From: an uncultured Candidatus Saccharibacteria bacterium
Lineage (GTDB): Bacteria > Patescibacteriota > Minisyncoccia > Phycocordibacterales > JACOZG01
DNA: 64,000 nt
NCBI GenBank assembly: GCA_964651115.1
Contig: CAZYXJ010000001.1
Span: 213,077 to 277,076 of the forward strand
Direction: 5' to 3'
Shown here: one piece after another, positions 21,864 to 60,421 of the stretch
Numbering within the stretch: the first letter of the stretch is position 1
How the letters are laid out: each line of letters begins with the position of its first letter
Notes under the pieces: generated by a model
Told to the model about the DNA's origin: nothing
Databases searched by the model: none
The model's input: only the letters and a program-made list of their open reading frames with translations
Program-made: the position numbers and the translations under genes

Positions 21864-22008
21864 GTTTTGAATTCCTGTATAAATAGCCTTCGGCCATATT
21901 ACCACCAAGCACAGGAGTTCACCACTCCAACGGCCCGGCTCTCTAAGTAACAGAAAAGACCCTTGCTTAAAAGCAAGGGTCTTGATTAGCGATTCGGGGG
22001 GGTAAGAA

Positions 22009-39682: not shown

Positions 39683-39691
39683 GGTTGGATT

Positions 39692-40459: not shown

Positions 40460-40461
40460 GA

Positions 40462-42152: not shown

Positions 42153-42169
42153 TTATAGGTTCTAAATTT

Positions 42170-43091: not shown

Positions 43092-43117
43092 GAGATTATT
43101 ATCCTACATTTTTTAAT

Positions 43118-43566: not shown

Positions 43567-44301
43567 CTAAACTTTGCCTAAGAAAACTTTTTCCAAAACA
43601 CCACTGGCAATGAGCGTAGTCGGCTGCCCCTCGGCGACCAGTAAGCCCTTATCAAGCACGTAGGCTCGGTCAGTAATTTCTAAAAGTGATTTAAGATTGT
43701 GCTCAACTACCACCACGGCGATCTGGCGTTTCTGATTAATCTCTTTAATCGTGGCAAAAATTTCCTTCACGATCTTGGGAGCAAGTCCTAGTGATGGCTC
43801 ATCGAGAAGCAGAACCTTAGGGTCGGTGACCAAGCCGCGAGCGATCGCGAGCATTTGCTGCTGGCCCCCAGAGAGCGTCCCCGATTTGGCTTTGAGTTTG
43901 GTTTTAAGCGCCGGTAAAAGGTCGAGAACTTCCGCAATCTTCTCTCTAACTAGTTTTTTGTTCTTAATCACGATCCCGCCTAATTCCAAATTTTCCTGCA
44001 CCGTCAGATGACGGAAAACCCGGCGGCCCTGCGGTACAAAAGTGATCCCCCGCAACACCATCTCGTGCGAGACTGGGGTAACCGACTCTTCGTGCCAGTA
44101 GACTTTGCCCCGCTCGATAGGCGCCAGGCCAAAGAGGGCCTTTAGAACCGTCGACTTCCCCGCCCCGTTGGGCCCCATCAAGGCCACCACCTCACCCTCA
44201 TCAATTGCTAGCGAAACACCGTCAAGCGCCTTCACGCCACCATAGTGGACATGGAGATCCTCTAGTTTTAGCAATTTTTCTGTAGCAACAGCCGTGGGCA
44301 T
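43567..44301 (-). CDS. livF: Branched-chain amino acid ABC transporter ATP-binding protein (LivF-like)
   Basis: Walker A GPNGAGKST, ABC signature LSGGQQQ, 244 aa. Confidence 0.8.
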   Translation of the reverse strand: MPTAVATEKLLKLEDLHVHYGGVKALDGVSLAIDEGEVVALMGPNGAGKSTVLKALFGLAPIERGKVYWHEESVTPVSHEMVLRGITFVPQGRRVFRHLTVQENLELGGIVIKNKKLVREKIAEVLDLLPALKTKLKAKSGTLSGGQQQMLAIARGLVTDPKVLLLDEPSLGLAPKIVKEIFATIKEINQKRQIAVVVVEHNLKSLLEITDRAYVLDKGLLVAEGQPTTLIASGVLEKVFLGKV

Positions 44302-44307
44302 GGTTTA

Positions 44308-45327
44308 TTAATTACCAGTTAAGATCGTTGGCTGGCCACCTTTAATTTGCTTCATGATAATCGGGCGGGTGTAGATGCCGCTAGCGTTAAACTTGGCGCC
44401 TGAGAGAAGATTACTTTTGACACAGCTGTAATCACCCTTACACTCCGTAACAGCTTGGACCAAAACCTCGGTTGCTTGTTTGGAGAGTCCAAAAACCGCC
44501 CCCTCGCTACCCTCCAAATCGCCAGGGAACGAATAAATCACATCGGGTACTAACTCACGCACGGCCGGTAATTCCGCTACGTAAGTTGTATAGACCGGCA
44601 CCATCACTTTAAGTTGGCGGAGCTTGGGTACGCCGCTGCCAAAGAAGAAGGAGATATCAGGTGAGTAGATAGCGTCAACGCCAGCTTTGCTAATCTTTAA
44701 TACCTCCGGCGAGAGATCAACAGTCTCGTCGGTTAAAACAACGTCTTGAGCGATTGTGCCCTTAAAGTTTTTACGGAAGCTGTCGGCGTGAGTCTGAGAG
44801 AAGGCGTTTTTAAAGCTCACCAGCGCCACCTTGCGATGACCACGAGCAAACATTTGCTCAGCCACAAACTTCGACTCCTCTTGGAGAGAATACTGGATAT
44901 TGAAGAAGTTGTTGCCGCTAGCCGCATACAAATCTGAGGAAGCGGCGGCTGGTACAATGGACAGAACCTCCTTACCCTTTAAAAGCGGCACAACCGCCTC
45001 TTGAGGCGAGCCGCAGGCGGGACCAATGATGTATTTAGCTTTATCAAACTCCGCTAATTTTTGATAAGCAGTTACCGCCACCTTTGGGTCACATTGATCA
45101 TCCTCAAAAATCAAACTAACAGCCGTCGTACTCCCAACACCAGCCTGCACACCTCGGCGGACCTCCTCACCATAATCAGCCAGTGGACCAGTAAGCGGCG
45201 CGATTACTCCTATTTTGACAGGTTCGCTTGTGCCCACAGGGCCATCTTTTTTAACCGCCACGCCAATACCCCACACCACCAGAATAATGACAATGATCGC
45301 GATTATAATTTTTGCTGTGTTGGACAT
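44308..45327 (-). CDS. PBP1/LivK-type substrate-binding protein, membrane-anchored (paralog 1)
   Basis: N-terminal TM anchor MSNTAKIIIAIIVIILVVWGIGVA, Peripla_BP_6-like domain. Confidence 0.7.
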   Translation of the reverse strand: MSNTAKIIIAIIVIILVVWGIGVAVKKDGPVGTSEPVKIGVIAPLTGPLADYGEEVRRGVQAGVGSTTAVSLIFEDDQCDPKVAVTAYQKLAEFDKAKYIIGPACGSPQEAVVPLLKGKEVLSIVPAAASSDLYAASGNNFFNIQYSLQEESKFVAEQMFARGHRKVALVSFKNAFSQTHADSFRKNFKGTIAQDVVLTDETVDLSPEVLKISKAGVDAIYSPDISFFFGSGVPKLRQLKVMVPVYTTYVAELPAVRELVPDVIYSFPGDLEGSEGAVFGLSKQATEVLVQAVTECKGDYSCVKSNLLSGAKFNASGIYTRPIIMKQIKGGQPTILTGN

Positions 45328-45337
45328 GGTGTTTTTG

Positions 45338-46081
45338 CTATTCTCCTAAATATGCCTCAATTACTTCTGGCTTTTTTAAAACTTCTTCTGGTAAACCTTG
45401 GGCCAAGAGCTGGCCGGCGTCCATCACGATTAAGTGATCACACAACTCGCGGATTAAATCCATGTTGTGCTCGACTAAAATAATAGTTTTACCTGCCGCC
45501 CGGAGCTCTTTAATTACGCTCACCACTGTTTTAATCATCTCAGGAAAGAGTCCGGCAAATGGTTCATCAAGAAAAATGATGGAGGCCGCGTTGTCACTAG
45601 CCGAGACCATCGCGAGCACGCGCGCGATCTCCAAGAGCTTGCGCTGACCATAAGAGAGATTAGCGGCTAACTCCCCGCGCTTCTCCCACAGACCAACTTT
45701 TTTAAGGGCCGCCTCAGCCTGAGCCACATGAAAATCTTTGTGCTTCTCAAACAGTGAGGCAAAAGTGTTCCGCTCTGTTAGGACCACCAAGATGTTATCG
45801 AGCACCGGCATTTGCTCAAAGAGTCGTACGTCTTGGAAGGTGCGGGTTACGCCGTACTCGGCTGACTCATAAGCGCGCAAGCGCGAGAGCTCAACGCCAG
45901 AAATTACGATCGCCCCCGCCTCAAACGGGAACATGCCAGTGAGAGTATTGATAAGAGTCGATTTGCCCGAGCCGTTGGGACCGATCACGCCAGTGATCTT
46001 GCCGGCAGCAAATTCAACCGAGAGCCGGTCTACCGCCTTAACCCCGTCAAATTGTTTGGAGAGACCGTGGGTTTTAAGCAT
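45338..46081 (-). CDS. livG: Branched-chain amino acid ABC transporter ATP-binding protein (LivG-like)
   Basis: Walker A GPNGSGKST, LivG-typical RTFQ motif, LSYGQRKLLEIAR signature. Confidence 0.8.
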   Translation of the reverse strand: MLKTHGLSKQFDGVKAVDRLSVEFAAGKITGVIGPNGSGKSTLINTLTGMFPFEAGAIVISGVELSRLRAYESAEYGVTRTFQDVRLFEQMPVLDNILVVLTERNTFASLFEKHKDFHVAQAEAALKKVGLWEKRGELAANLSYGQRKLLEIARVLAMVSASDNAASIIFLDEPFAGLFPEMIKTVVSVIKELRAAGKTIILVEHNMDLIRELCDHLIVMDAGQLLAQGLPEEVLKKPEVIEAYLGE

Positions 46082-46120
46082 CGTAGCCTAATTAAATAGG
46101 ATGTTGCCCCGACCGTCAAA

Positions 46121-46846
46121 TTACCGTTTTGGTCTAATTGAATAGCAAACCCAGGTGTAACCCAGGGCATTATTGTAGCGCCTGCCGACAACCTCACAAC
46201 CACAATCGCTAACTAAGTTCTCCAGCACCACAAAATCAGCATTGGGATCTTTAGTATTTGCGCTTTGCAGGTTAGAGTGAGTTAAGAGTATGTAGCCGCC
46301 TGGATTAATATGGTCTCTGGCCTCCTCAAATAGTCTTCGGTGCAGGACCATCCCCGGATCATAGAGCGCTGCGGTGATGCTTGTTTTTTCTGTGGGGACA
46401 GCGTTCGTAATGGGCAGATTAGCAATTATCCGATCATATTTTTTATTCCCCATTGCTGAGAAGAGATCACTTACGAATACCGATATTGTGTCTTCTAGAC
46501 CATTTAGTTGAACATTATGTTTGCTGCAAGCTACCGCCTCCGGAATAAGATCCACAGCATCAACGTGTTTGGCCCCTTTAATAACTGCCGCAATTGATTC
46601 GACACCAGTACCGCAACCGATGTCAGCAACATCCAAACCGCTCAAATCACCAAGAGCTTCATATAATGTGCGAGAGGACACGGAGTGATCAGCGGCCGGC
46701 GGAAAAATGCCAGGGAAGACATCGATTAAGATAATTTTGCCATCGATTTCGACATTCACCCGATAAGTTCCTTGGGCTTTCTTGCGCTCCAGTTCTTTGA
46801 CCATTCCCTGGGTCTGCGGGGAATCAGCTTGTGGTTTGATTTCCAT
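46121..46846 (-). CDS. SAM-dependent methyltransferase, MTS-domain type (RsmC/PrmA-like) with a degenerate motif IV
   Basis: DIGCGTG motif I. IANLPI is found where NPPF/NPPY is expected. Start overlaps the stop of the upstream SBP gene by 1 nt. Confidence 0.6.
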   Translation of the reverse strand: MEIKPQADSPQTQGMVKELERKKAQGTYRVNVEIDGKIILIDVFPGIFPPAADHSVSSRTLYEALGDLSGLDVADIGCGTGVESIAAVIKGAKHVDAVDLIPEAVACSKHNVQLNGLEDTISVFVSDLFSAMGNKKYDRIIANLPITNAVPTEKTSITAALYDPGMVLHRRLFEEARDHINPGGYILLTHSNLQSANTKDPNADFVVLENLVSDCGCEVVGRRYNNALGYTWVCYSIRPKR

Positions 46847-48006
46847 TACTCAGCCTTCACGAATTTACCCTCACGAACAGTCTTCATTTCAAAGGCTTCG
46901 ACTGGAGTCTCAACAAAACCCTTGTCATCAAACTCAATGAGAGGAATAGATACACTGCCCTCAAACCTCACCTTCTCTAAACCTGATCGAACATTCTCTC
47001 GATTAATTTCTTGGCCAGACTCAACAAGGCCCTTCATCACCTCCGCCAGAACCAAAACTGCGTTGTAAGAGGTAACAGCCGATGGCGACAATGGCTTTAG
47101 ATTAAATCTAGCTTCGTACGCCTTCTCAAACTGATCATAACCATGAGACTGGCTTGGCGTTGCAAAATATAGACGGTTTTGCATCAGCTCTGGGCATTCG
47201 CTCAAAGCTTTTGGCGTTCCGGCAGACTCGGTGGAGAGAAGAGGTAAAGGCGCTCCAAGTTCCTTAGACTGAGCCAAAAAGACACATTCCAACTCGGCAA
47301 AAGCGCCAAAGAAGGCGTCTGGGGATTTGGCCTTAGCCTTGCTAATCAAAGTTCGATAATCAGTAACGGCATAGTCCGTACCCATTTCTTTAGCCACCAC
47401 AGTAATACCAAATTCTGGCGCATTTTTTTCAACCAAGTTAGCAGTAAAAAGCCAGAAGCTAAAGTTTGCTGGCTGGACAATGGCAATCTTTTTCCAGCCC
47501 TTATTTTGAGCAAACTTGAGTAATTCTCTAATCCCCACTTCGTTCTTGGGCCAAGTAACAAAGAAATAAGGTGAGTTAACTTTAGACTCAATGTAGGTTG
47601 AGACATTGGGGCTCACCACTGGAGTTTTGTCAGCTGAAGAGATGGCAGCCACTACCTCGCCGTTACCGTCCCACTGAGGACCAACAATAGCGACTACATT
47701 ATCAACTGCAATTAACTTCTTGGCCGCTGCCGCTCCGCGTTTAAGATCAAGACCAGGAGCGTCTTCTGAAACCATTTCTATTTTCTTGCCACCCACCCCA
47801 CCTTGAGCATTTACTTCTTCCACCGCTAGCAGAGCCCCGTTCTTTTCCTCTGCACCAATTTCAGCGCCTAAGCCAGATTGCCCAGACATCTGCCCGATCT
47901 TGATAACCTCCGCCGAGACTGAATTAGGATTTTTGCTCTTGCTCGCCCAAACTCCCAGCCCCACCACCACCAGAATTATGACGATCCAAATTATTGTTTT
48001 TTTCAT
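46846..48006 (-). CDS. PBP1/LivK-type substrate-binding protein, membrane-anchored (paralog 2)
   Basis: MKKTIIWIVIILVVVGLGVWASK anchor, Leu/Ile/Val-binding-protein fold signatures. Confidence 0.7.
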   Translation of the reverse strand: MKKTIIWIVIILVVVGLGVWASKSKNPNSVSAEVIKIGQMSGQSGLGAEIGAEEKNGALLAVEEVNAQGGVGGKKIEMVSEDAPGLDLKRGAAAAKKLIAVDNVVAIVGPQWDGNGEVVAAISSADKTPVVSPNVSTYIESKVNSPYFFVTWPKNEVGIRELLKFAQNKGWKKIAIVQPANFSFWLFTANLVEKNAPEFGITVVAKEMGTDYAVTDYRTLISKAKAKSPDAFFGAFAELECVFLAQSKELGAPLPLLSTESAGTPKALSECPELMQNRLYFATPSQSHGYDQFEKAYEARFNLKPLSPSAVTSYNAVLVLAEVMKGLVESGQEINRENVRSGLEKVRFEGSVSIPLIEFDDKGFVETPVEAFEMKTVREGKFVKAE

Positions 48007-48009
48007 AGT

Positions 48010-48732
48010 TTATTTAATTCCCACAACAACAGCTTCCATCATTTTGCGATAAACCGTTTCCACACCCTTAAAACCAATCGAAGTCATAAACGTTTTTGCC
48101 TCCCCTTCAAAAAACACCAGATCTTCTTGTTCGTCACGTTCCATGTGTGCAAGCCACTCTTTTTTGTAATCCGACCGACCAATGGTGTCGTAAATGTCAT
48201 ATTTGGCAATTTGTTCTCTATAAATCTCTTGTCGCTTTTCTGGATCATCATGGGCATACTTATCACCATTAACAAAAATGCCACCCGGCTTTAAGACCCT
48301 GAAGATTTCTGAAATTATCTGTCGACGAAAGTTTTGTTCAAAATTATGGATCACGAAACCAGAAGCTACGGCATCAAATGATGAGTCTGGTATATTCTTC
48401 AAATATTCTCCGACCTCACTTTCAATTACCGTCACCCGATTGGAAGCTTGCCAACGATTAAGATTATCCTGGATTTGATCAATCATTTTTTTCTCATTAT
48501 CAACAGCCACAACGCGTACACGAGAATCTGAGTCAAGTAGAAACTTGGTAGTAATCCCGGTCCCACATCCGACCTCCATAGTTACAATACTCCCCACCTG
48601 AGAATCCTTGAAGTGCTCGCGGATAGCTTGCCCAACCGCCTGCTGAAGTTCATCATAGTGCGGGTAAGCCAACTTCAAAAGCTCATACTCTTCGCCCAGG
48701 ATATTATTAAATCTTTGATCGTTAGAAGTCAT
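48010..48732 (-). CDS. Class I SAM-dependent methyltransferase (Methyltransf_25/12-like)
   Basis: VGCGTGITTKFLL motif I; 240 aa. Confidence 0.65.
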   Translation of the reverse strand: MTSNDQRFNNILGEEYELLKLAYPHYDELQQAVGQAIREHFKDSQVGSIVTMEVGCGTGITTKFLLDSDSRVRVVAVDNEKKMIDQIQDNLNRWQASNRVTVIESEVGEYLKNIPDSSFDAVASGFVIHNFEQNFRRQIISEIFRVLKPGGIFVNGDKYAHDDPEKRQEIYREQIAKYDIYDTIGRSDYKKEWLAHMERDEQEDLVFFEGEAKTFMTSIGFKGVETVYRKMMEAVVVGIK

Positions 48733-48737
48733 TTTAT

Positions 48738-49847
48738 TTATTTCAGAGGAATAATTCTATTTTTCTCAACTTTAAAGAACAGCACTGGTTTATGAGCATT
48801 GCCGTCATCATCAAAAGTCATCGTGCCAGATGCGCCAACAAACTCTTTAATATTACTGAGAGATTTAGCAACTAGCTCTGGATCAGTCGACCCGACATCG
48901 CTGATCGCCTTGATGTATAGGTTAAATGCATCATAAGCCTGATTAGCCGGAAAACCAACCTCTCGCTGATATTTAGATTGGAATTTTTTATTAAACGCAC
49001 TATCAACTGTATCAGTAGAAACAAAGATCGTTCCTTCCAAAGAACCTTGGGCTTGATCGATCGTAGGCTGAAACAACAATACAGAGAAAAATGGGATCGT
49101 CATCCCTAAATCTCGCAGCCGCTGGGCAGAAACGGCCGTTTGTCCATAATTAGTAAAAACAACGGCCTCTGGATTAGACGTTTTTATCTTCGTTGCTTCG
49201 GTTCGCAAATCTTTGTTGTCGACGGTAGGCAGTTGAATTGAGACTACGGCTCCACCAAGCTCTTCAAATTTTTTCTTTACAAAATTAGCCTGGTCCATCT
49301 CCCACTCTTGCTGAGAGCCAAATATAGCAATCTTTCGAAATCCTCTTTGCTTATAGAGATACTCGGCCAAGGTAAAACTATCAAATTTGTTAGGCGGAAA
49401 AACATCAAAAGTTCTTGGACTCATTTCAGCAAATTTTTCTGACCCGACTGACGGAGAAATAATTACTACGTTTGCCTTTTCTGCTACAGGAGCCAACACC
49501 GTCGCTGTGGGAGTGAAATCCGGACCAATTATCAAACGCACATCACGATTTATTAGGTTATAAAGCGCCGATAATCCACCTTTGGGATTATCGCCAAGAT
49601 TATCCTCATAAACCATTTCAACCGGTCGGCCCAATACGCCTCCAGCTTGATTAACTTCTCCAACAGCCAGATCAATACCTCGTTTGGCATTCTCACCGGT
49701 ATCAGCAAAGTTACCGGTTAAATTGAGGATTGCGCCAATCTTAATTGGGCCATCAGTATTATTTGACATCTGCCCATCACGATAAAACCACGCCCCCAAC
49801 CCAACCAGCACTAGAATTATGACAACCCAAATAACGATTTTTTTCAT
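48738..49847 (-). CDS. PBP1/LivK-type substrate-binding protein, membrane-anchored (paralog 3)
   Basis: MKKIVIWVVIILVLVGLGAWF anchor; ...IKIGAILNLTGNFADTGENAKRGIDLAVGEVNQAGGVLGRPVEMVYEDN... is the classic LivJ/K N-lobe. Confidence 0.75.
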   Translation of the reverse strand: MKKIVIWVVIILVLVGLGAWFYRDGQMSNNTDGPIKIGAILNLTGNFADTGENAKRGIDLAVGEVNQAGGVLGRPVEMVYEDNLGDNPKGGLSALYNLINRDVRLIIGPDFTPTATVLAPVAEKANVVIISPSVGSEKFAEMSPRTFDVFPPNKFDSFTLAEYLYKQRGFRKIAIFGSQQEWEMDQANFVKKKFEELGGAVVSIQLPTVDNKDLRTEATKIKTSNPEAVVFTNYGQTAVSAQRLRDLGMTIPFFSVLLFQPTIDQAQGSLEGTIFVSTDTVDSAFNKKFQSKYQREVGFPANQAYDAFNLYIKAISDVGSTDPELVAKSLSNIKEFVGASGTMTFDDDGNAHKPVLFFKVEKNRIIPLK

Positions 49848-49850
49848 ATT

Positions 49851-50930
49851 TTATTCTAGATCTGTTAGCTGACCACCTTTTACCGCCATAATTTTAGTTT
49901 CTGGCTTGCGATTACCGGTGCCGTCAAACTCGATCTTGCCGCCCACACCCGCAAAGTTTGCAGCCTTAAGATTTTTGACCCAAGTGGCCTGATTAGCGTC
50001 ATAGGTTGCGACCAGCAAATTAAACGCATCGTAGCCGATATCAGACAAAAAGCCAGGATCAGCATTAAAGCGAGCTTTGTACTTAGCTTTAAACTCATCG
50101 GCCACGTCCGACTTTACCGTTCCGACAATCGTGCCATCAAGAACCTTCATATCACCCAAGATACGCTGGTAATCAGAGAAGCCAGATTGGAAGTTGGTGT
50201 CAAAAAAGAATTGCGGATTATTTTTCTTAATCTTCAAAAATTCTTGCATAAAGCGAGCGCCCTGCTGCGGCACAATAAAGAGACCGATCGTACTGGAGTT
50301 GCTAGCGGCCACCTTTAAAGCGTGGGGTCGGAGATCCTTTTCGTCAGCCTGGATAACAAAATCAGTAGTTGTACCCTGGAAGCCTTGTTTAAAACTTTCT
50401 ACAAAGCGGACCATGGCATCAATATTGCTGTAGACAATCGCCATCTCTTTAACACCCTTCTCTCTCATATACACTCCGTACTCATACTCAGAAGCGATAC
50501 TGTTGGGCAAAATACCAAGCACGTTATCATCAGCCGGCTCTCGTCCCTGCTCGCCCATTTGGATAACCGGTAGATCGGTTGTCGTTACCGCACCATAAAT
50601 CGCATCGATCGTCGGCGTAGAAACATTGATCAGCGCCTGGATCTGATTGCTCGTAATCAATTTTTGATAAGCACTGAGTCCCTTGCCACCATTAAAGCCA
50701 TCATCCTCCATAAAAACATTTATCTTAGCATCAGGATGCGCTTGATTATATTCCTCACTAGCCAAAACAACGCCGTTGCGGATGTTCTCGCCGACGGCCG
50801 CGTAATCTCCGCTAAGAATGGCGATGAGTCCTAGATTAAAACTTTTAGCTTGCTGATTGTTGCCAGACCAAACAACCGCCCCGATCACAATAATGGCAAT
50901 GATAACTACCCAAATAATTATTTTTTTCAT
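49851..50930 (-). CDS. PBP1/LivK-type substrate-binding protein, membrane-anchored (paralog 4)
   Basis: MKKIIIWVVIIAIIVIGAVVW anchor; PBP1 fold. Confidence 0.7.
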   Translation of the reverse strand: MKKIIIWVVIIAIIVIGAVVWSGNNQQAKSFNLGLIAILSGDYAAVGENIRNGVVLASEEYNQAHPDAKINVFMEDDGFNGGKGLSAYQKLITSNQIQALINVSTPTIDAIYGAVTTTDLPVIQMGEQGREPADDNVLGILPNSIASEYEYGVYMREKGVKEMAIVYSNIDAMVRFVESFKQGFQGTTTDFVIQADEKDLRPHALKVAASNSSTIGLFIVPQQGARFMQEFLKIKKNNPQFFFDTNFQSGFSDYQRILGDMKVLDGTIVGTVKSDVADEFKAKYKARFNADPGFLSDIGYDAFNLLVATYDANQATWVKNLKAANFAGVGGKIEFDGTGNRKPETKIMAVKGGQLTDLE

Positions 50931-50935
50931 ATTGG

Positions 50936-52057: not shown

Positions 52058-52123
52058 GACTCTAGTCTAGCAAGCTCGGGTGAACTGTAAAGCAAAAGTT
52101 GACTATACTGGTTTTATTGCCCG

Positions 52124-53239
52124 TTATGGCAAACGGTCAATCGTCTGCAACTTACCCTCAACCACTTTTTTGATTACCAGAGGCGGGATCCGGATACCAT
52201 TCTCATCAAACTGGACCTTGCCGCTCGCGCCCATCGTATTGGTCTTTTTAAGATTGGCAACCCACTTTGAGCTATCACTATCATAGGCATTGAGATAGGT
52301 CATAAAGGTGTCGTAGCCGTAATCAGCCAAAAAACCAGGCTCTTCGTTAGGATACATTTTCTTGAAGGCGTTGTAGAACTCCTTGTACTCTTGCGAATTT
52401 AAGTCACCCTCCATCCCCAAAGCAATGGCCCCATTAATTTTAGTTAGATTTTCTCCGAGTTGATCCTGATAATAGGAAGTCCCTGTCGTAAGTTGGATAT
52501 CGTAAACAAGCTGTGTTCCAGAGTTAAGAAGCGGCAACAATTCTTTTGTCAGAATCGCCCCGTTCTCCGGCGTCATAATAAAGACAACCGTTGTTGGTTT
52601 GGCTGCGGCGATCTTAGCGGCATCACTTCTTAGCGAATTTTTGTCTGACGAGGCAACAAAGGTAGTAACTGGCTTGCCGTACTCTTTTACAAAAGCTTTA
52701 GCAAAAGAGTCCTGAGCGGCATCAATAGAATGAACAACAACTACTTTAGATTCGTTAAAGCCCGCGCCCTTAATGTAGGTGCTAAAACGATCCCAGACAT
52801 TATCATTCCCTTGGGTCATCTGGAAAACGTAGTCATCGGCAACATTGTTGGCCTGGAAGGCAACCATCATGACGGGAAATCCCGCGGCCTTACCCGGCTC
52901 GTAAATAGAGTCCATCGTTGTGGTAAAGAAGTTGATTAACCCCCCAACATTGTCCTGGGTGGTAAGTTTGCGATAAGCGCTTAAGCCTTTGGCGCCATCA
53001 CCGCCATCGTCCTCCACAACAATCTCAATATTATTTCCCGTGTCTTCTTGATAAACCTGCTGCGCCACTTTTAGACCCTTTAAAGTATTTTCTCCCACTG
53101 CGCCAAAATCACCAGTTAGCGACATGACGGCACCAATCTTCAGCCCAGAGGTCTCGGGGTTCTTCGAACCTACAGTAATGATCGCCCCGACAATAATTGT
53201 CATGACAACAATCGCCAAAATTATTTTTGATTTTTTCAT
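52124..53239 (-). CDS. PBP1/LivK-type substrate-binding protein, membrane-anchored (paralog 6)
   Basis: MKKSKIILAIVVMTIIVGAIITVG anchor; PBP1 fold. Confidence 0.7.
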   Translation of the reverse strand: MKKSKIILAIVVMTIIVGAIITVGSKNPETSGLKIGAVMSLTGDFGAVGENTLKGLKVAQQVYQEDTGNNIEIVVEDDGGDGAKGLSAYRKLTTQDNVGGLINFFTTTMDSIYEPGKAAGFPVMMVAFQANNVADDYVFQMTQGNDNVWDRFSTYIKGAGFNESKVVVVHSIDAAQDSFAKAFVKEYGKPVTTFVASSDKNSLRSDAAKIAAAKPTTVVFIMTPENGAILTKELLPLLNSGTQLVYDIQLTTGTSYYQDQLGENLTKINGAIALGMEGDLNSQEYKEFYNAFKKMYPNEEPGFLADYGYDTFMTYLNAYDSDSSKWVANLKKTNTMGASGKVQFDENGIRIPPLVIKKVVEGKLQTIDRLP

Positions 53240-53378
53240 AATAGCATTATACAGATGAGCTATTTTATTGTATATAGATGAGGCTCGGTTGGACCGTTTC
53301 TCAAAAATATGCTTATTTATAGCGCTGGAACGGTTTTTATAATTTGACTAAAAATTAGTCACAAGCTATACTCAGCTG

Positions 53379-54203
53379 ATGGGTAACAGCAACGCCATCT
53401 ATAACCTAATGGGCCTCACCGAGACCGAAAAGCGGATTCTGCGGGCACTCCAGTCAGCAAAAAACGTGCAAAACATTGCCCGCCAGACGGGTATCTCTCG
53501 AACGGGAATAAATTATTGTCTCAGTTCCCTACTTAAACGTAGTCTCGTGCGCATTATCCGTCAGGGCCGCAAAAGATTATTCATTGGCCTGACTAAGCTA
53601 GAACTTGTTAATTTGCTGCAAGAGGCCATCGACGGATCAAAAATCGAAGGGGCGGAAAAGAGGGGCGCGAGAGTCCGGTCCACCAAAGAGGACGAATTTG
53701 TTATCCATGTGGGAGCCAAAGAGATTATCCCCGCCTACACCCGCATCGCCTCCGCGAACAAAGATGAGCGCATTAAAGCCATCCAACACCATCGCTCTTA
53801 CAATGAACTATTAGAAAAAATCACCGCTACCCAGTTGGTTGCCTTCAATAAAACCATCATTAAAAATCGCCTCATTATCGAGGGGATGCTGAACGAAGGA
53901 GCTTATCAAGCCTACAAAGAAGAAGTTGGAACAAACCCGAACAAGTATAAGGACTCTATCGAAAGCCTAGAAGGACGGATGGCGGATTACACCTGCTTTC
54001 CCGACAATAAGTTTAACCATGATGCCGAGCTGTGGCTATTTAAAAATACTTCGCTTTTGATTAATTGGCACGATGAGGTGGCGATAGAAATTACTAACAA
54101 AAGTATGACCGCCTTTCTGAAAGATATGTTTGACTTCGTTAAAAAAGACGGCCACAAGATCGACCATAACCGAGCCGTGAGAAATGTTTTAACAAAAAAT
54201 TGA
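53379..54203 (+). CDS. Winged-helix transcriptional regulator, TrmB-like
   Basis: The N-terminal ~70 aa form a wHTH (LTETEKRILRALQSAKNVQNIARQTGISRTGINYCLSSLLKRSLV). The C-terminal tail (...MFDFV...) is similar to that of the second regulator at 60422. Divergent from the SBP operon. Confidence 0.55.
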   Translation: MGNSNAIYNLMGLTETEKRILRALQSAKNVQNIARQTGISRTGINYCLSSLLKRSLVRIIRQGRKRLFIGLTKLELVNLLQEAIDGSKIEGAEKRGARVRSTKEDEFVIHVGAKEIIPAYTRIASANKDERIKAIQHHRSYNELLEKITATQLVAFNKTIIKNRLIIEGMLNEGAYQAYKEEVGTNPNKYKDSIESLEGRMADYTCFPDNKFNHDAELWLFKNTSLLINWHDEVAIEITNKSMTAFLKDMFDFVKKDGHKIDHNRAVRNVLTKN

Positions 54204-54212
54204 TCTGGGGAT

Positions 54213-55091
54213 TTAAATCTTATACTCCCCGATCAGGCCTTGAGGGCGGTAGAGCATAAGGACGATTAGCAAGAGGCCATAGACGGCTTGGCGCATTTGC
54301 GCCGCAATATCGGTGGGAAAGCCCACAAAACGCAAGGCCTCAGGCAACAGGATCAAACAAACCGCCCCCAAAACTGAGCCGCGGAGATTGGCCAGTCCGC
54401 CGAGAATAATAATCGCCAGCAAAAAGATCGACTCATTAAGCGAGAAAGTGGAAGGATCAATAAAGGTGATATAAGAAGCAAAAAGTGAGCCTGCTAGTGC
54501 CGCCAATCCAGCACTAATTACAAAGATCAGAAGTTTGTAATTAAAGGTGTGATAACCAAACACCCGGATCGCCTCCTCGTCCTCACGAATCGCCTTTAAA
54601 ACTCGGCCAAACGAGGATTTAACAATCAAACGTGATACAAGGTAAACCAAAGCAAGCGCTACGGCGGTTAAAACCAGAAACTCAAGGTTTGAGTTAAGGT
54701 CCAATTTCCAATTACCAATTCCTAAGGAGGGGCGAGTAATCCCGGGGACACCCAAGGGGCCGCGAGTTACTGATTGCCAGTTGAGAAAGATACTATAAAT
54801 GATGATGTTGAAGCCAAAGGAGCCGAGAGCGTAAAAGTCTTCGCGGAAGCGCGAGAGCACCACGCCCACTACCACCGAGACCAACATCGCGATAATCATC
54901 CCGATCAAAGTTGCCAAGAAAAAGTTCAACCCCATTCCTGTTAGCAGCAGCGCTGTGGCGTAAGCGCCAATGCCATAAAAGGCGGCTTGAGTGATGGAAA
55001 GGAGACCAGTGTAGCCAACGATCAGATTTAAGCTGATCCCCAAGATCCCGTAGATACCGATCAGAATGGCTAAGTGGATTAAATATTCCAT
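54213..55091 (-). CDS. livM: Branched-chain amino acid ABC transporter permease (LivM-like)
   Basis: 292 aa, ~8 TM helices, BPD_transp_2 family pattern. Confidence 0.75.
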   Translation of the reverse strand: MEYLIHLAILIGIYGILGISLNLIVGYTGLLSITQAAFYGIGAYATALLLTGMGLNFFLATLIGMIIAMLVSVVVGVVLSRFREDFYALGSFGFNIIIYSIFLNWQSVTRGPLGVPGITRPSLGIGNWKLDLNSNLEFLVLTAVALALVYLVSRLIVKSSFGRVLKAIREDEEAIRVFGYHTFNYKLLIFVISAGLAALAGSLFASYITFIDPSTFSLNESIFLLAIIILGGLANLRGSVLGAVCLILLPEALRFVGFPTDIAAQMRQAVYGLLLIVLMLYRPQGLIGEYKI

Positions 55092-55093
55092 GG

Positions 55094-55972
55094 CTACTTT
55101 TTAAATAGACCCTGCGGGCGAAATAAAAGAAACAGAAGCAGGAGCACGAAGGCGATCGCATCCTTCCACTCCCCGGCCAACTTCCAAATCCCAAAATTTT
55201 CTACAAAGCCCAAAATAAAAGCCCCGATGATCCCACCCCAAATATTACCGGCGCCACCAATAATCGCCGCGATCACTCCTTTTAGGAGGAGTGATAACCC
55301 CATCGTTGGCTCGATACCGGTATCAAAGCCGATCATGATCCCCGCCAACCCAGCAATGGCCGAGCCGAGAAAGAAAACGGTGGCAATCACATTGCTGGTA
55401 TTGATCCCCACGATTTTAGAAACCTCTTCATCATCGCCCACGGCCCGGATGGCTTTACCGATCGCCGTGTATTTAAGAAAGAGTCCCAGCAGCACGCCGA
55501 TCACCAGGACCAGGGCCACAATAATAAGCTGGACCTGAGTGATTACGCCGCCGGCAATCTCGTAGACCTGACCGCTGCCGGCGGCGCGACTTAGGGTCTG
55601 GAACTGACTAGTAAAGAGCATGGCGATAATCGCCTGGAGCATGGTAAAGGCACCCAGGGAGGCAACTAGCAAAACCATGTTGGAAGCTTTGCGCTTCCGA
55701 AGCGGTCGATAAACTAGATAGTTAATCAAAAGCCCGATCAAACCAGCCACCAAGACGCCCAAAACCACCGCCCACCATAAGTCGCCACCAAGTTTTTTAT
55801 AAAAAAAGAAAACGGTATAACCACCCACTGCCGTGAGAGCACCATAACCAAGATCAAAAAACTTGACCGTACCAAAGATTAAATTAAAACCGAGCGCCAA
55901 GAGAGCATAGATGGCGCCAGCAATAATGCTATTAGCAACAAGTTGTGGCAAGATATCCATATATATTTTCAA
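55094..55972 (-). CDS. livH: Branched-chain amino acid ABC transporter permease (LivH-like)
   Basis: 292 aa, multi-TM, BPD_transp_2 family pattern. Confidence 0.75.
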   Translation of the reverse strand: MKIYMDILPQLVANSIIAGAIYALLALGFNLIFGTVKFFDLGYGALTAVGGYTVFFFYKKLGGDLWWAVVLGVLVAGLIGLLINYLVYRPLRKRKASNMVLLVASLGAFTMLQAIIAMLFTSQFQTLSRAAGSGQVYEIAGGVITQVQLIIVALVLVIGVLLGLFLKYTAIGKAIRAVGDDEEVSKIVGINTSNVIATVFFLGSAIAGLAGIMIGFDTGIEPTMGLSLLLKGVIAAIIGGAGNIWGGIIGAFILGFVENFGIWKLAGEWKDAIAFVLLLLFLLFRPQGLFKK

Positions 55973-56028
55973 CCAAACTATAACAGCAACCTGAGCTGAC
56001 TACAAATCAGGTCCGGAATAAAACAAGC

Positions 56029-57135
56029 CTACTCTGCCATTCTCACAAACTTACCATCCTGGATAGATTTAAAGTAAAACTCTCTTTGAATGGTGTTCTG
56101 GTCAAAAGACATGACCCCACTTACTCCTTGGTAATTATTTAGTTGTAAAATGTAATCTCTGACACAAGACGAATTATTTTTGCCACAACTCTCAAGGGCA
56201 TCAATCAATATTTTGTATATATCGTAAGCATTGTAAGCCGCCACTTGAGGCCGTCCGCTGGTTACCTTTTGAAATTCGCTGATAAACTTTTGCTGAGCAC
56301 TAGTAAGAGAGCTCTCGTTAATTGGGAAAGTGTAAACCAATCCCTCCAAGCTACTACCTCCAGCCGCCACCAAATCAGACGCCTCTGTCGCGTATTGACC
56401 AAACAGAGGTACATCTATTCCTAATTCTCTGGCCTGTTTAGCAATTTGCCCGACTCCAGCCCCATTGTAGACAATATATAGAGCATCCGGGGCGGCCTTT
56501 TTGAGTTTAAGCAGGCTGGTTCGAAAATCCTGCGACCCAACAAGGAAAGGCTCGGCCCCAACCAAAACTCCACCACGTTTTTCTGTTTCCTCTTTGAACG
56601 ATCGGTAATGAAGGAGACCAAAATCATTGTTCATATAGATAATGGCCGGTTTTTGTTTTTTAAGTTTGGTGACAATTAATTCCGCCAACACTCGTGCCTC
56701 ACTGTCTGCTTCATGGGAGCCCTTGATCACATATCCCTCGATCTTATTGGCCGCACCCCAGGGTGTGAAGGCGACGATTTGGTTTTGGCTGGCTAGAGGT
56801 TTTACCGCTTCTATTCCGGAACTATTTAGCGGACCCACAATGGCGTCGACACCATCTACCGTCACTAATTTATTGAAGGCTGATACCGCTTTTTCTGAAG
56901 TAAATCCATCATCTTCGTAGACAAGTTCAACCTTTTCGCCATAATCTTTATTGGCGATCTCCAAGGCTGCCCTGATATCCTCTCCTACCTTAGCCTGAGC
57001 CCCCGTTAAAGGAATAACCACACCAATCTTAATCGGCTCGCCCCTCACCGGGCTCGCCTCGTCTCTCCTGCTCGCCCACACTCCTAACCCCATCACTACC
57101 AGAATTATGACGATCCAAATTATTACCTTTTTCAT
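56029..57135 (-). CDS. PBP1/LivK-type substrate-binding protein, membrane-anchored (paralog 7)
   Basis: MKKVIIWIVIILVVMGLGVWASRRDE anchor; PBP1 fold. Confidence 0.7.
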   Translation of the reverse strand: MKKVIIWIVIILVVMGLGVWASRRDEASPVRGEPIKIGVVIPLTGAQAKVGEDIRAALEIANKDYGEKVELVYEDDGFTSEKAVSAFNKLVTVDGVDAIVGPLNSSGIEAVKPLASQNQIVAFTPWGAANKIEGYVIKGSHEADSEARVLAELIVTKLKKQKPAIIYMNNDFGLLHYRSFKEETEKRGGVLVGAEPFLVGSQDFRTSLLKLKKAAPDALYIVYNGAGVGQIAKQARELGIDVPLFGQYATEASDLVAAGGSSLEGLVYTFPINESSLTSAQQKFISEFQKVTSGRPQVAAYNAYDIYKILIDALESCGKNNSSCVRDYILQLNNYQGVSGVMSFDQNTIQREFYFKSIQDGKFVRMAE

Positions 57136-57137
57136 AT

Positions 57138-57893
57138 CTAATTATTTAATATAAGCTCGTGCATGTAAATCATCCCTCTTTGGAGGTTGTTGATTGAATT
57201 GTGTAACCAGGTCGTTTGTACCTCATAACCAAGCTTTTCCCCAACAATTCTGGGATCAGTTAAGTCACCACCCAAACTGTAGGAAGGAATCGCAATCACA
57301 CCCTGAGGGTTAAGGTGCTCTTTCGCTTCAACCAGAAATCTCTCAAACAGCTCGGGCAGCATGAGCATGCTGGCAGAAATGGTATCACCTTCTGGAGACT
57401 TACCAGCAAAAAACGGGATCATCCAAGTTATTAGATCCGCTTTTTCGTCGATCTTTTCAAATAAGTCACCCTGGACGACAGAAGCAATCGCCTCAACATT
57501 AAATCTTTTTATATTCTCCTGCGTATTTTCCACAGCCGGAAGGGAAACATCAGACATAACGACTTTCTTGGCTCCATACTTGGCCATTATTACTCCCATT
57601 AGCCCAGTACCTGATCCTATTTCAATTGCAGTTTTATTAAAAAAGAGAGCATTGTGATAAAAAAGATAACGAGCGTGATAACGACCCGAAGCAATTAGAG
57701 GATTCCACACCCCCTTTTTGATCAGAAAGTTTTTCAGAGTGTCGTCCTCCCCGCTTACGTCGTAGTTTACTTCAAAATCTTCGTGTTGGTGTTTTTCCCA
57801 TTGGGTCAAAACCAGATTTCTCTGGTCTTGATTTAGCATCTTTAAGTTATCCTCTTGGAGAGTCGCTTCCCGCTTATCCATATGCCTTTTCAA
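57138..57893 (-). CDS. SAM-dependent methyltransferase (MTS/PrmA-like small-domain type)
   Basis: IEIGSGTGLMGVIMAKYG motif I; 251 aa; 3-nt gap to the downstream SBP gene. Confidence 0.6.
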   Translation of the reverse strand: MKRHMDKREATLQEDNLKMLNQDQRNLVLTQWEKHQHEDFEVNYDVSGEDDTLKNFLIKKGVWNPLIASGRYHARYLFYHNALFFNKTAIEIGSGTGLMGVIMAKYGAKKVVMSDVSLPAVENTQENIKRFNVEAIASVVQGDLFEKIDEKADLITWMIPFFAGKSPEGDTISASMLMLPELFERFLVEAKEHLNPQGVIAIPSYSLGGDLTDPRIVGEKLGYEVQTTWLHNSINNLQRGMIYMHELILNN

Positions 57894-57932
57894 CCAAACT
57901 ATACCTTATTCCTTGTATTGTTTCCAACGGTA

Positions 57933-59054
57933 TTAACGTAGTGATTTATAGCCGCCAGGTATACCATCTTTAGACAACACGATCTGCCACAGTTGGATAC
58001 TGCGAGCCCGAAAAGCTCCCGCACAGGCTAGCAAATAATAACGCCACATCCGTCGGAAGCGCTCAGAGTAATTTTGCTTGATCTGATCCCAACTGCGCTC
58101 AAAGTTTTGCTGCCAGGCCATTAGAGTCTTATCGTAATCAGAACCAAAATTGTGCCAATCTTCCATCACAAACAGGCCCTCAATCCCTCGGGCCATTTGG
58201 GCGACACTTGGCAAAACACCGTTAGGAAAAATGTACTTATCGATCCAAGGATCCGTTACCCTTGAGCCCACACTTTTACCGATCGTGTGGAGCAAAAAGA
58301 GTCCGCCATCTTTTAAGCAACGGCGGGCCACCTCAAAATAGCTGCGATAATTTTTATCACCCACATGCTCAAACATCCCCAACGACACAATCGCATCAAA
58401 CTGGCCGGTTAGATCACGATAGTCTTGCAATAAAATCTCGACCGGCAAACCCTGACACAACTCCATCCCAAGAGCCACCTGCTCCTTAGAAACAGTGACA
58501 CCAGTAACCCGCACCCCGTAACGCTCGGCCGCAAACTTGGCAAAGCTGCCCCAACCACAACCAATATCCAAAACGTGCATCCCGGGTTTAAGATTAAGCT
58601 TTTGGCAAACCAAATCTAATTTGGCCTCCTGCGCCTCATCGAGTGAGTTCGCCTGGCGCCAATAAGCACAAGTGTAGACCAAGCGTCGATCCAACATTTG
58701 GCGGTAAAGATCGTTGCCGGCATCGTAATGCTCCTCGCCCACCATAAAAGCCCGAGACTTTGATTGGCGGTTAAAAAGAGTGTTTATTAGATAAGAAAGG
58801 GCGAGTTGCCAACCCCCTCGAACTTGCTGGTGGAGTTTGGCGCGAAATATTTTATCGAAAAATTGATCCAGCTCCTGGGCGTCCCACCAACCATCCATAT
58901 AACTCTCTCCTAAAGCCAAGGAACCGCCGGCCAAAACCCGAGCGTAAAAACGTTCATCGTGGATCTGGATATCCCCCGGCGCGGCACCATTAATGGTAAC
59001 GCCAGCCTTGGCAAGCAGGTCAGTAATCAGCCGTTTAGCGGTTATAGTTGACAT
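57933..59054 (-). CDS. Cyclopropane-fatty-acyl-phospholipid synthase family methyltransferase (CFA synthase / mycolic-acid MTase-like)
   Basis: 373 aa; VLDIGCGWGSFAKFAAERYG motif I; C-terminal CMAS-family region. Confidence 0.75.
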   Translation of the reverse strand: MSTITAKRLITDLLAKAGVTINGAAPGDIQIHDERFYARVLAGGSLALGESYMDGWWDAQELDQFFDKIFRAKLHQQVRGGWQLALSYLINTLFNRQSKSRAFMVGEEHYDAGNDLYRQMLDRRLVYTCAYWRQANSLDEAQEAKLDLVCQKLNLKPGMHVLDIGCGWGSFAKFAAERYGVRVTGVTVSKEQVALGMELCQGLPVEILLQDYRDLTGQFDAIVSLGMFEHVGDKNYRSYFEVARRCLKDGGLFLLHTIGKSVGSRVTDPWIDKYIFPNGVLPSVAQMARGIEGLFVMEDWHNFGSDYDKTLMAWQQNFERSWDQIKQNYSERFRRMWRYYLLACAGAFRARSIQLWQIVLSKDGIPGGYKSLR

Positions 59055-59133
59055 CGTTTTAAACTATCATGAAGTTTTTCCAAACGCCAACCACCCGCCT
59101 CTCGGCGGGTGGTTGGGAATAAACCTTAATTTT

Positions 59134-60252
59134 TTACTGACTGATCGTCACCGGCTTGCCGTCTTTAATCATGCGCACTACGGCCTTAGAATTTACAACG
59201 CCATTATCATCTATTGTTAGGTCCTTACCAAGAGCACCATCAAACTTAGGAATATCGGCGATTGCATCACGGATCTCACTTCTGCTGGGCTTAACTTCTC
59301 CGTTGCCCGCAGACTCTGTGGCCATAACAATCAGGTTAAGAACATCGTAGGCGTTAGCAGCGCCAAACTTTGGTCCTTGGTCATAGCGTTTAGTATATAA
59401 GTCAACAAACCATTGAGTTGGATCAGCGCCATTGACGTACCACATCCCCTCAAACAGTGACAACTGATCAGAAAACTCAAAAGCTTCCATCGTTGTTACC
59501 GGTGTCGTGATTCCGGCCTCACGCATTTGTTTGGCAAGAATTTCCAATTCGGGCGTGGTTGCCTCAAGAACATAGATGTCGGCACCCGAGATTTTAAAAC
59601 CCTTATCGATAAGGGTTTTAAAATCTCGGGTGCCAGTGTTAAACTTCTGAGTCGAAAGCACTTGGATATTAGTATTTTTTATATCCTTCTCGAAGCTGTT
59701 AATGATTGCTGCTACCCCTTGGTTATCTTGCTGCGCAAAAAAGACAAGCTTTTTTATGCCTCTTTTTTGTAACTCTTGAATAAAGAGCCGCGAATCCTCA
59801 TACGGTGGTGTGTAGTGAACAAAGTTATACTCACCGTCAGCCACCTGAGAAGCCGAAGCAAAGTCATTAATATGAGGCACTCCATTTTTCTCGGCAATCG
59901 GACTAATCACACTGCCCACCGGCGACCCAAAAGATACCAAAACGTCTGCCTTATCAATGGCGATAAGCTTGTTCGCCACGGTCGCACCCAGAGCTGGCTT
60001 AAACTGATCGTCTTCAAAGATAAGTTTGTAGTTATATTTGAGATTTTTTGGCAATCCCTCCTGTGCCAAGGTAATTGCGTTTTTGGCACTTTGGCCAAGC
60101 ATGGCTACGTCTCCGGTCAACGGCAAACTAACGCCAACGATAACTGTTGGTCTCATCGCCTCTGGGACTTGAGAATCTTGCCTGGTCAAAACCAGGCCTA
60201 TCAGGACGATGATGACAAGACCAATAATGGTCCAAATTATTTTTTTATTCAT
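59134..60252 (-). CDS. PBP1/LivK-type substrate-binding protein, membrane-anchored (paralog 8)
   Basis: MNKKIIWTIIGLVIIVLIGLVLTRQDS anchor; PBP1 fold. Confidence 0.7.
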   Translation of the reverse strand: MNKKIIWTIIGLVIIVLIGLVLTRQDSQVPEAMRPTVIVGVSLPLTGDVAMLGQSAKNAITLAQEGLPKNLKYNYKLIFEDDQFKPALGATVANKLIAIDKADVLVSFGSPVGSVISPIAEKNGVPHINDFASASQVADGEYNFVHYTPPYEDSRLFIQELQKRGIKKLVFFAQQDNQGVAAIINSFEKDIKNTNIQVLSTQKFNTGTRDFKTLIDKGFKISGADIYVLEATTPELEILAKQMREAGITTPVTTMEAFEFSDQLSLFEGMWYVNGADPTQWFVDLYTKRYDQGPKFGAANAYDVLNLIVMATESAGNGEVKPSRSEIRDAIADIPKFDGALGKDLTIDDNGVVNSKAVVRMIKDGKPVTISQ

Positions 60253-60421
60253 ATATGATTATAAATATATCTTATATCCACTCAAGCATAAACTAGATTT
60301 TTCTCTTGTCATTAATAATTATCTAATTGCCACAGGAAATATGGCCTTAACTAAAGGTTTTTTAACTTATTAATTTTTTTGTTCGTTAAAAGTGACAAAT
60401 GTTTAAATACGTGTTAGAGTT

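Follow-up and report, generated by a model that had tools for sequence, protein, structure and literature searches.

The DNA analysed here, which we call the window, is a 64,000-nt stretch of contig CAZYXJ010000001.1 (positions 213,077 to 277,076; assembly GCA_964651115.1) from an uncultured Candidatus Saccharibacteria bacterium. On its minus strand, at 43567-60252, lies an array in which eight genes for substrate-binding proteins (SBPs) and four genes for methyltransferases (MTases) accompany a single Liv-type ATP-binding cassette (ABC) transporter. With a probability of roughly 60%, we read this array as a multi-SBP HAAT/Liv-type importer locus that is typical of its lineage, in a Paceibacteria-like bacterium of the Candidate Phyla Radiation (CPR), and its MTase genes as mostly lineage-specific insertions. 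The reading draws on gene content, the age of the paralogs, the orthology and arrangement of genes in relatives, the lack of MTases from relatives' arrays, and repeat scars. One translocator, made of the LivH and LivM permeases and the LivG and LivF ATPases, would be fed by eight PBP1-type SBPs, likely to be membrane-tethered and to differ in their ligands, which would widen the scavenging range of an auxotrophic cell. The genes would fall into two units, and a divergent TrmB-like regulator at the head of each may control it. Into this recombination-prone array the present lineage would have inserted four genes for cytoplasmic MTases, probably co-transcribed with the transporter genes and not part of the transport mechanism.

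Gene content and organisation

By Pfam and NCBIfam, the array comprises eight Peripla_BP_6 SBPs (SBP1 to SBP8), LivH, LivM, LivG and LivF once each, four MTases (MT1, MT2, MT3 and a cyclopropane-fatty-acyl-phospholipid synthase, CFA) and two TrmB-like regulators. The minus strand of 43567-60252 holds 16 genes, and two plus-strand regulators, TrmB1 within that interval and TrmB2 beyond it at 60422-61222, bring the total to 18. The upper unit is ordered TrmB2<>SBP8-CFA-MT3-SBP7-livH-livM and the lower one TrmB1<>SBP6-SBP5-SBP4-SBP3-MT2-SBP2-MT1-livG-SBP1-livF. An initial annotation, made from the letters of the sequence, had put the span at 18 kb, which should read 16.7 kb. Its inventory is otherwise borne out: eight correctly placed PBP1-family SBPs (all Peripla_BP_6 by Pfam) against one liv-type transporter within the 64-kb window; two MTS/PrmA-like MTases together with one Methyltransf_25-like and one CFA-synthase-like, in agreement with their Pfam types; two TrmB-like genes (PF01978 matches) divergent from SBP6 and SBP8; and tight SBP-MTase junctions at 46846, where MT1 and SBP2 overlap by 1 nt, and at 57135/57138, where 2 nt separate SBP7 and MT3.

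Liv arrays of related bacteria

A livM-anchored scan of metagenome contigs yielded 80 loci with LivM identities of 65-77%, 719 kb in total, which we annotated with the window's own proteins (loci of relatives are labelled L001 upward, and coordinates without a locus label refer to the window). Liv clusters in the 26 livM loci of at least 12 kb contain 0-13 SBP genes, with a median of 3; four loci contain at least eight. The most extreme array, in L069 (Ga0172379_10000046, 20.9 kb), carries about 13 SBP genes in 20 kb, some of them between livH and livM. TrmB genes in relatives' arrays are paired divergently with an SBP gene in 22 of 25 cases, across spacers of 96-263 nt, and the window's two divergent spacers measure 139 nt (TrmB1-SBP6) and 169 nt (TrmB2-SBP8). 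An orthologous TrmB2<>SBP8 cassette is found in L036 (TrmB2 at 413 bits), L047 (430 bits), L091 and L096, while the position of TrmB1, after livM and divergent from an SBP4/6-type gene, is repeated in L036 and L047. As a whole, L036 reads TrmB2< SBP8> livH> livM> TrmB< SBP4>, that is, the skeleton of the window minus CFA-MT3-SBP7. Judged by these comparisons, a multi-SBP liv array with interspersed TrmB genes is the norm of the lineage and not special to the window, and the TrmB<>SBP cassette is its recurring building block. The initial annotation had itself named a commonness of the SBP expansion in relatives as an argument against its reading; the expansion is common among relatives. A search of the available literature returned nothing specific on multi-SBP liv arrays in CPR bacteria.

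Where arrays of relatives are interrupted, the intervening genes form a mixed accessory set, including toxin-antitoxin modules (AbiEii, HepT), AAA_14/DUF4143, NYN, MacB/HlyD, Vut_1, an SDR dehydrogenase and others, which indicates that such arrays readily accept insertions. MT2, MT3 and CFA occur in none of the 80 livM loci of relatives, where MT1 is represented by one truncated remnant.

A mixed array could also be produced by a chimeric contig, through an error of assembly or binning. The GC content, which drops from about 0.52-0.58 in the genes upstream to 0.41-0.49 in the array, and the repeats within the array would both fit such an artefact. On the other hand, the open reading frames (ORFs) are intact and tightly spaced, the window's proteins are on record on one 444,558-bp contig, and the skeleton TrmB<SBP8>...livH>livM>TrmB<SBP4...livG>SBP1>livF is found on independent contigs. 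Since the skeleton recurs in this way, we judge a chimera extremely unlikely.

Regulators and expression signals

TrmB1 (53379..54203, plus strand; PF01978 at 27.1 bits, cutoff 25.6) is a TrmB-like winged helix-turn-helix (wHTH) protein whose gene is divergent from SBP6 and convergent with livM, and TrmB2 (60422..61222, plus strand; 44.8 bits against the same cutoff) is encoded divergently from SBP8. Scores against the NCBIfam TrmB/TrmBL1 equivalogs are about 25 bits, where the cutoffs are 600-650, and only residues 3-155 align. The founding member of the family, TrmB of Thermococcus/Pyrococcus, is encoded beside the trehalose/maltose ABC transporter operon. The window's proteins resemble it as wHTH regulators beside SBP-dependent ABC genes, which they presumably control; they differ in their bacterial host, in numbering one per SBP cassette, and in having no match to the sugar-binding C-terminal domain.

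The totals of the promoter and terminator scans were not above shuffled controls (36 vs 26.6±5.1 and 21 vs 20.8), so that only the positions of the best -10-like boxes were used. These lie directly upstream of SBP8, SBP6, TrmB1, TrmB2, SBP7 and MT3; they include a TATAAT-type box at 53274-53246, close upstream of SBP6, and TTGAGT-16-TATAAT at 60285-60258, upstream of SBP8. An Rfam scan of the window detected one tRNA-Ser only, and no riboswitch (e.g., a SAM riboswitch) controlling the array. Across the window, TATAAT/TATAGT boxes stand some 6-22 nt upstream of many start codons (for instance at 53246-53274, at 60258-60285 and upstream of 61506-62045) and Shine-Dalgarno sequences are mostly absent. 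Taken together, the box positions and the missing Shine-Dalgarno sequences suggest leaderless or very short-leader mRNAs.

Divergence, ligands and anchoring of the binding proteins

All eight SBPs, encoded on the minus strand, match PF13458 above its cutoff, with E values ranging from 5e-24 to 2e-57. In the lower unit these are SBP1 (44308..45327; 4e-30), a short protein of 339 aa encoded between livG and livF; SBP2 (46846..48006; 6e-44); SBP3 (48738..49847; 2e-57), 5 nt upstream of MT2; SBP4 (49851..50930; 9e-27), a divergent paralog of SBP6; SBP5 (50936..52057; 2e-51); and SBP6 (52124..53239; 5e-24), the first gene of this operon. The upper unit encodes SBP7 (56029..57135; 1e-52) and, as its first gene, SBP8 (59134..60252; 2e-37). 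All-vs-all identities are 20-33%, with SBP4 and SBP6 at 33%, and the eight are old, anciently diverged paralogs. Clear one-to-one orthologs were found in relatives for six of them: SBP1 in L097 (493 bits), L042 and L069, with the order livG>SBP1>livF also present in L097; SBP2 in L025 (522 bits), L027 (289 bits) and L022 (270 bits); SBP3, discussed below; SBP4 in L036, L044 and L047 (about 470 bits); SBP5 in L078 (355 bits); and SBP8, which has nine clear orthologs, e.g., in L036 at 559 bits. SBP7 has no clear ortholog among the relatives. Having their own orthologs, these six SBPs have each been maintained as a lineage of its own, an argument for different ligands. One of the two explanations offered in the initial annotation, a multi-ligand scavenging battery, thus probably holds, given the age of the paralogs, the six sets of orthologs and the fact that multi-SBP arrays are usual in the lineage.

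As for what these proteins bind, the LivJ-type NCBIfam model gives them 56-96 bits where its cutoff is 477, and a PDB sequence search returned distant HAAT-family matches only, with SBP4 matching 4ey3 alone. Because these relatives are too distant (about 25% identity), we assign no ligand to any of the window's SBPs. In general, other amino acids, aromatic acids, fatty acids and dicarboxylates are common ligands of COG0683 'branched-chain amino acid' SBPs (PMC3223731).

The similarity of SBP3 to AmiC, although weak (1pea, E 1e-15), brings in a different function for the extra SBPs, namely that they are sensors that signal to the TrmB-like regulators or to other partners, as PBP1-type AmiC does. 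That each SBP cassette has its own regulator would suit this role. However, the SBPs have N-terminal hydrophobic export/anchor segments while TrmB is cytoplasmic, their genes are embedded in operons with permease and ATPase genes, and their best PDB relatives are transport SBPs; we thus find a sensory function very unlikely.

The N-termini of the SBPs contain hydrophobic stretches of about 16-20 residues and no Cys in the first 50 residues, hence no lipobox, from which tethering to the membrane by an N-terminal helix seems probable; SBP2 and SBP7 may instead be cleaved after ...VWA. The initial annotation had described the anchors of all eight as near-identical. This is true of SBP2 and SBP7, whose first 66 nt are 88% identical, but not of the other six: the anchor of SBP3 reaches about 70%, and the remaining SBPs have in common just a generic Lys and an Ile/Val-rich segment. 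The 5' ends of SBP7 (57065-57143) and SBP2 (47936-48014) form a repeat, D2, of 79 nt with 85% identity, whereas the whole proteins are 27% identical. Since orthologs in relatives carry anchors that differ from those of the window's SBPs, the similarity is best ascribed to local homogenisation within this genome, and it looks like gene conversion of the signal/anchor-coding region.

The closest known counterpart in organisation is E. coli LivJ/LivK-LivHMGF (HAAT, TC 3.A.1.4). The window has the same set of two BPD_transp_2 permeases, LivM (54213..55091; PF02653, E 4e-47) and LivH (55094..55972; E 2e-46), and two ATPases, of which LivG (45338..46081; PF00005 ABC_tran) has the LivG C-terminal motif BCA_ABC_TP_C (PF12399) and LivF (43567..44301; PF00005, E 4e-35) has orthologs that end the liv clusters of relatives, all four encoded on the minus strand; it also has PBP1/Peripla_BP_6 SBPs and more than one of them per translocator. 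It differs in having eight SBPs instead of two, at E values of about 1e-18 to LivJ, in that these are probably tethered by an N-terminal helix and not free in the periplasm, and in that the permease and ATPase genes are located in two separate TrmB-headed units. That one ABC translocator can be fed by several SBPs is well established (Thomas 2010, 'Homes for the orphans', as cited in PMC3223731); in HisJ/ArgT-HisQMP and Borrelia OppA1-5, for example, SBPs of the same family widen the translocator's range. A further parallel is Rhodopseudomonas palustris with its expanded sets of COG0683 SBPs, a type that binds far beyond branched-chain amino acids (PMC3223731). What sets the window apart from these importers is the clustering of SBP genes in cis (eight here, up to 13 within 20 kb in relatives), the minimal-genome CPR host and the TrmB<>SBP cassettes.

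Methyltransferases within the array

The initial annotation had taken repeated SBP-MTase coupling for a new transporter architecture, with SBPs acting in a methylation-linked pathway as its second explanation. Besides the two junctions given above, SBP2 and MT2 are 3 nt apart, and MT2 and SBP3 5 nt. If the MTases are removed from the array, 11 of the 13 gene junctions touch an SBP gene and the median gap is 5.5 nt; both the adjacency of SBP and MTase genes and their tight spacing are therefore expected by chance. Furthermore, none of the MTases has a signal or transmembrane segment, which restricts any SBP-MTase link to the level of a pathway. Their homologs are named as Paceibacterota, other CPR phyla and DPANN archaea, which identifies the source of the window as a CPR bacterium.

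MT3 (57138..57893, minus strand; MTS-type, PF05175, E 8e-13) belongs to a family shared at 55-85% identity by CPR bacteria (Uhrbacteria, Kerfeldbacteria, Moranbacteria, Saccharibacteria) and DPANN archaea (Pacearchaeota, Nanoarchaeota, Aenigmarchaeota). Such conservation across domains is unusual, and suggests that the gene was transferred between them and that its substrate is under strong constraint. Its fold is nearest to N-methyltransferases (TM 0.6-0.67), with no characterised relative. In our survey of 15 species-representative genomes (L006-L020), no locus had an SBP or liv gene near the MT3 homolog. A divergent TrmB gene stood beside it in about nine of the 15, and a release-factor gene in none. 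Ten neighbours were scanned, among which no other gene recurred.

How MT3 may have come into the array is indicated by D7, a 29-nt direct repeat (26/29 identical) that combines a TATAGT box with a 16-nt leader and the two opening codons (ATGGATA). Copy 1 (55954..55982, minus strand) is the native -10 box, leader and start of livH, while copy 2 (57875..57903, minus strand) duplicates this promoter and start at the head of MT3, and the two bracket exactly a 1.9-kb block of MT3 and SBP7. The element is native to livH, since in relatives livH opens with MDIL/MDII and follows a TATAGT box; the 5' regions of other MT3 homologs are unrelated. From D7, the probable true starts are ATG 55960 for livH and ATG 57881 for MT3 (giving 247 aa), and not the listed TTGs. 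The repeat points to a lineage-specific insertion or duplication of MT3+SBP7, of which it would be the scar. We attribute repeats D4, D5, D6 and D8 to conserved coding motifs or to chance.

MT1 (46121..46846, minus strand) is an MTS/PrmA-type class I S-adenosylmethionine (SAM) methyltransferase (PF05175, E 4e-17). Its usual neighbour is Vut_1, a YhhQ-type transporter for queuosine-precursor/vitamin uptake, whose gene abuts the MT1 homolog in four of five independent contexts from CPR and Woesearchaeota (L001/L002, L005, L107/L108 and L109, the last with a GTP-cyclohydrolase-I-like ORF in between). In the remaining context (L003/L004), a release-factor gene lies 10 nt downstream of the MT1 homolog; the release-factor gene of the window (169-1161) is 45 kb away from MT1, and the window has no Vut_1 gene. 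The MT1-Vut_1 linkage hints at a function in the salvage of 7-deazapurines or vitamins. In L027, a 103-aa ORF that matches MT1 residues 34-100 only lies downstream of the SBP2 ortholog and ahead of an ATPase gene. This ORF occupies the slot of MT1, of which it is a decayed form, and the transporter there is intact. The SBP2 orthologs in L025 and L022 stand without MT1. Other genes seen around MT1 homologs are Exo_endo_phos, which follows the homolog in L001, and DUF1761, which lies near that of the Woesearchaeota locus L005 and also at the edge of the window's array.

MT1 and MT3 are distant paralogs (25% identity, E 1e-11), and their best NCBIfam and PDB similarities, as well as their MTS-type Rossmann fold, are those of the N5-glutamine methyltransferases HemK/PrmC and archaeal/eukaryotic HemK2/MTQ2. 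We rejected an assignment as PrmC or MTQ2, because both proteins fall below every HemK/PrmC/MTQ2/PrmA cutoff of NCBIfam (TIGR00537: MT1 55 and MT3 50 bits, cutoff 87; TIGR03534: 55 and 37 bits, cutoff 199) and lack NPPY, in place of which motif IV is a near-invariant IIANLPI (NLPI) in the MT1 family, and the MT3 family has W-M-I-P-F (MIPF). Their usual neighbours differ as well, being Vut_1 for MT1 and TrmB for MT3. Relatives by PDB search and fold are generic (Asc-Orf2, TrmM, HemK2/KMT9, PrmA; TM 0.6-0.67). By these comparisons, MT1 and MT3 represent uncharacterised families common to CPR and DPANN.

CFA (57933..59054, minus strand; PF02353, E 2e-93) matches the NF008686 equivalog at 627 bits, against a cutoff of 400, over residues 5-372 of 373, and is a bona fide, ordinary cyclopropane-fatty-acyl-phospholipid synthase. 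Enzymes of this family act on membrane phospholipids. Like E. coli Cfa, it is a full-length match to the equivalog, and it differs notably only in its location inside a transporter array; the CFA homolog in L016 lies outside any liv cluster.

These surveys bear directly on whether all four MTases together serve a methylation pathway dedicated to the SBP battery, for example with each enzyme modifying the cargo of the neighbouring SBP. Four MTases among 18 genes, separated from SBP genes by -1 to 5 nt, are a striking concentration; they are missing from relatives' arrays, and MT3 seems to have been inserted together with SBP7. Nonetheless, such a pathway is largely refuted by the synteny data, and we consider it very unlikely: an SBP is a neighbour in 0/15 loci with MT3 homologs; the partner of MT1 is Vut_1, and next to SBP2 orthologs MT1 is decayed (L027) or missing (L025, L022); CFA synthase works on membrane phospholipids; the enzymes come from three unrelated MTase subfamilies; and adjacency to an SBP is what 11/13 junctions would offer anyway. 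For MT1, MT3 and CFA, no conserved association with SBPs is seen. They resemble insertions into a plastic array rich in SBP genes, and the supposed architecture is mostly a by-product of such insertions. The part of the coupling idea that survives, and the only pair that recurred in related genomes, is SBP3-MT2, found again in one further clade.

The SBP3-MT2 pair

MT2 (48010..48732, minus strand) is a Methyltransf_11/25 protein by Pfam, placed in the MM_2633/CysG/BelI/CmoA structural group by its AlphaFold2 (AF2) model. Its two closest homologs on long contigs, at 64-65% identity, are in L101 (GCA_964628065.1) and L102 (a JGI metagenome). In both, the MT2 ortholog lies 2 nt downstream of an SBP gene whose product is an ortholog of SBP3 (66% identity, 502 bits, vs at most 125 bits to any other SBP of the window), and the pair is located between an integrase gene and a further MTase/Exo_endo_phos, outside any liv array. 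Being 80-86% identical to each other, L101 and L102 count as one additional clade. Among 165 SBP-like ORFs of relatives there was no other clear SBP3 ortholog, so that every SBP3 ortholog seen has an adjoining MT2. The block of SBP3, MT2 and a 220-aa MTase, between integrase and Exo_endo_phos genes, spans 5961-11173 in L101 and 5933-10699 in L102; in L103 (1-3459) the integrase and Exo_endo_phos genes are directly adjacent, which suggests that the block was inserted as a unit. Other MT2 homologs are found in L104 (64% identity), without an SBP; in L105 (54%), 25 nt upstream of an ABC operon of SBP_bac_3, permease and ATPase; and in L103 and L106 (48-49%), with a divergent TrmB only.

The AF2 model of MT2 (pLDDT 94.4) has its best Foldseek matches in 3dtn (MM_2633), CysG/BelI and CmoA, with E values of about 1e-16 to 3e-16, TM scores of about 0.75-0.85 and about 22% identity for CysG/BelI. 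CysG and BelI are Ca2+-dependent carboxyl O-methyltransferases that act on 3-isopropylmalate / 3-sec-butylmalate and have a His-His-Asp site (PMC11408123). In the MT2 family, an invariant H129-N130 and a near-invariant D200 align with this metal site in CysG, so that His129 and Asp200 occupy metal-site positions while the second His is Asn; the CysG H123N variant stays active (PMC11408123). MT2 differs further in that CysG Arg22 is not conserved, aligning with Lys or Leu, that no beta-lactone biosynthetic genes are found near it, and that its partner is an SBP.

From these data one can build a scenario of import and methylation limited to this pair, in which SBP3 would deliver a small solute, such as a dicarboxylate or amino-acid-like acid, through LivHMGF, and cytoplasmic MT2, as a metal-dependent O-methyltransferase of MM_2633/CysG/BelI type, would methylate it for trapping, detoxification or use. 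The ortholog pair 2 nt apart outside a liv array, the MT2 beside every SBP3 ortholog seen and the L105 homolog at the head of an SBP_bac_3 operon all fit; so would the modelled fold and the H-N-D residues, which match enzymes that O-methylate 3-isopropylmalate-type acids (PMC11408123), and the tendency of COG0683 SBPs to bind dicarboxylates rather than Leu/Ile/Val (PMC3223731). Yet the pair is known from just two independent lineages and could reflect short-range synteny by descent, an equally close MT2 homolog (L104) has no SBP and those of L103 and L106 have only TrmB, and two CysG residues, Arg22 and the second His, are replaced. We regard the scenario as possible but tentative, and the pair itself as a modest lead. 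A broader form of it, which we hold to be more doubtful still, takes SBP3-MT2 for a portable pair of genes by which CPR bacteria bind, import and methylate a small carboxylate or amino-acid-like solute: a PBP1-type SBP would capture it, and a co-translated MM_2633/CysG-type metal-dependent O-methyltransferase would methylate it in the cytoplasm. On this view, small CPR/DPANN MTases more generally (MT1 with Vut_1, MT2 with SBPs) could be dedicated partners of uptake systems.

Surroundings of the array

Outside the array, the window is ordinary housekeeping DNA. A fifth class I MTase gene (39692-40459, Methyltransf_11) is enclosed by two paralogous SIMPL/DUF541 genes (38885-41193), 9 nt from one and 2 nt from the other, repeating the pattern of MT2, an MTase between paralogous genes for exported proteins. 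Next to the array lie oxidative-stress and membrane genes, with DUF1761, TspO and MsrB (41736-43498) on one side and MsrA (61506-62045) on the other. A low-GC stretch at 16000-22200 (0.42-0.46), which holds a 1124-aa ORF (18759-22133), may be an island of defence or mobile genes. The ORFs of the window include a reverse-transcriptase domain and a Type ISP restriction-modification specificity domain, both possibly located in that stretch.

Discussion

Several observations weigh against reading the MTases as mere passengers of a lineage-typical importer locus. Four of them occur in one 17-kb array, while MT2, MT3 and CFA are found nowhere in the 719 kb of relatives' arrays, a concentration for which we have no explanation. 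The usual partner of the MT1 family, Vut_1, is itself a transporter, and MT3 and SBP7 were apparently inserted or duplicated as one block. The SBP3-MT2 pair has been kept in a second clade (L101, L102) with flanks that differ from those of the window, and the MT2 homolog in L105 precedes an SBP_bac_3 ABC transporter by 25 nt. Finally, the fifth MTase of the window is also sandwiched between paralogous genes for exported proteins (SIMPL). We still favour the multi-SBP importer locus with inserted MTases.

On this reading, the locus is a clear example of how a host-dependent, minimal-genome CPR bacterium would broaden its scavenging, by stacking cassettes of regulator and SBP on one translocator in an array that gains and loses genes freely. 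For the annotation of CPR genomes, this implies that labels such as 'branched-chain amino acid transporter' almost certainly understate the substrate range. Furthermore, the SBP3-MT2 pair and the linkage of MT1 with Vut_1 offer leads on what the widespread, uncharacterised small MTases of CPR and DPANN do.

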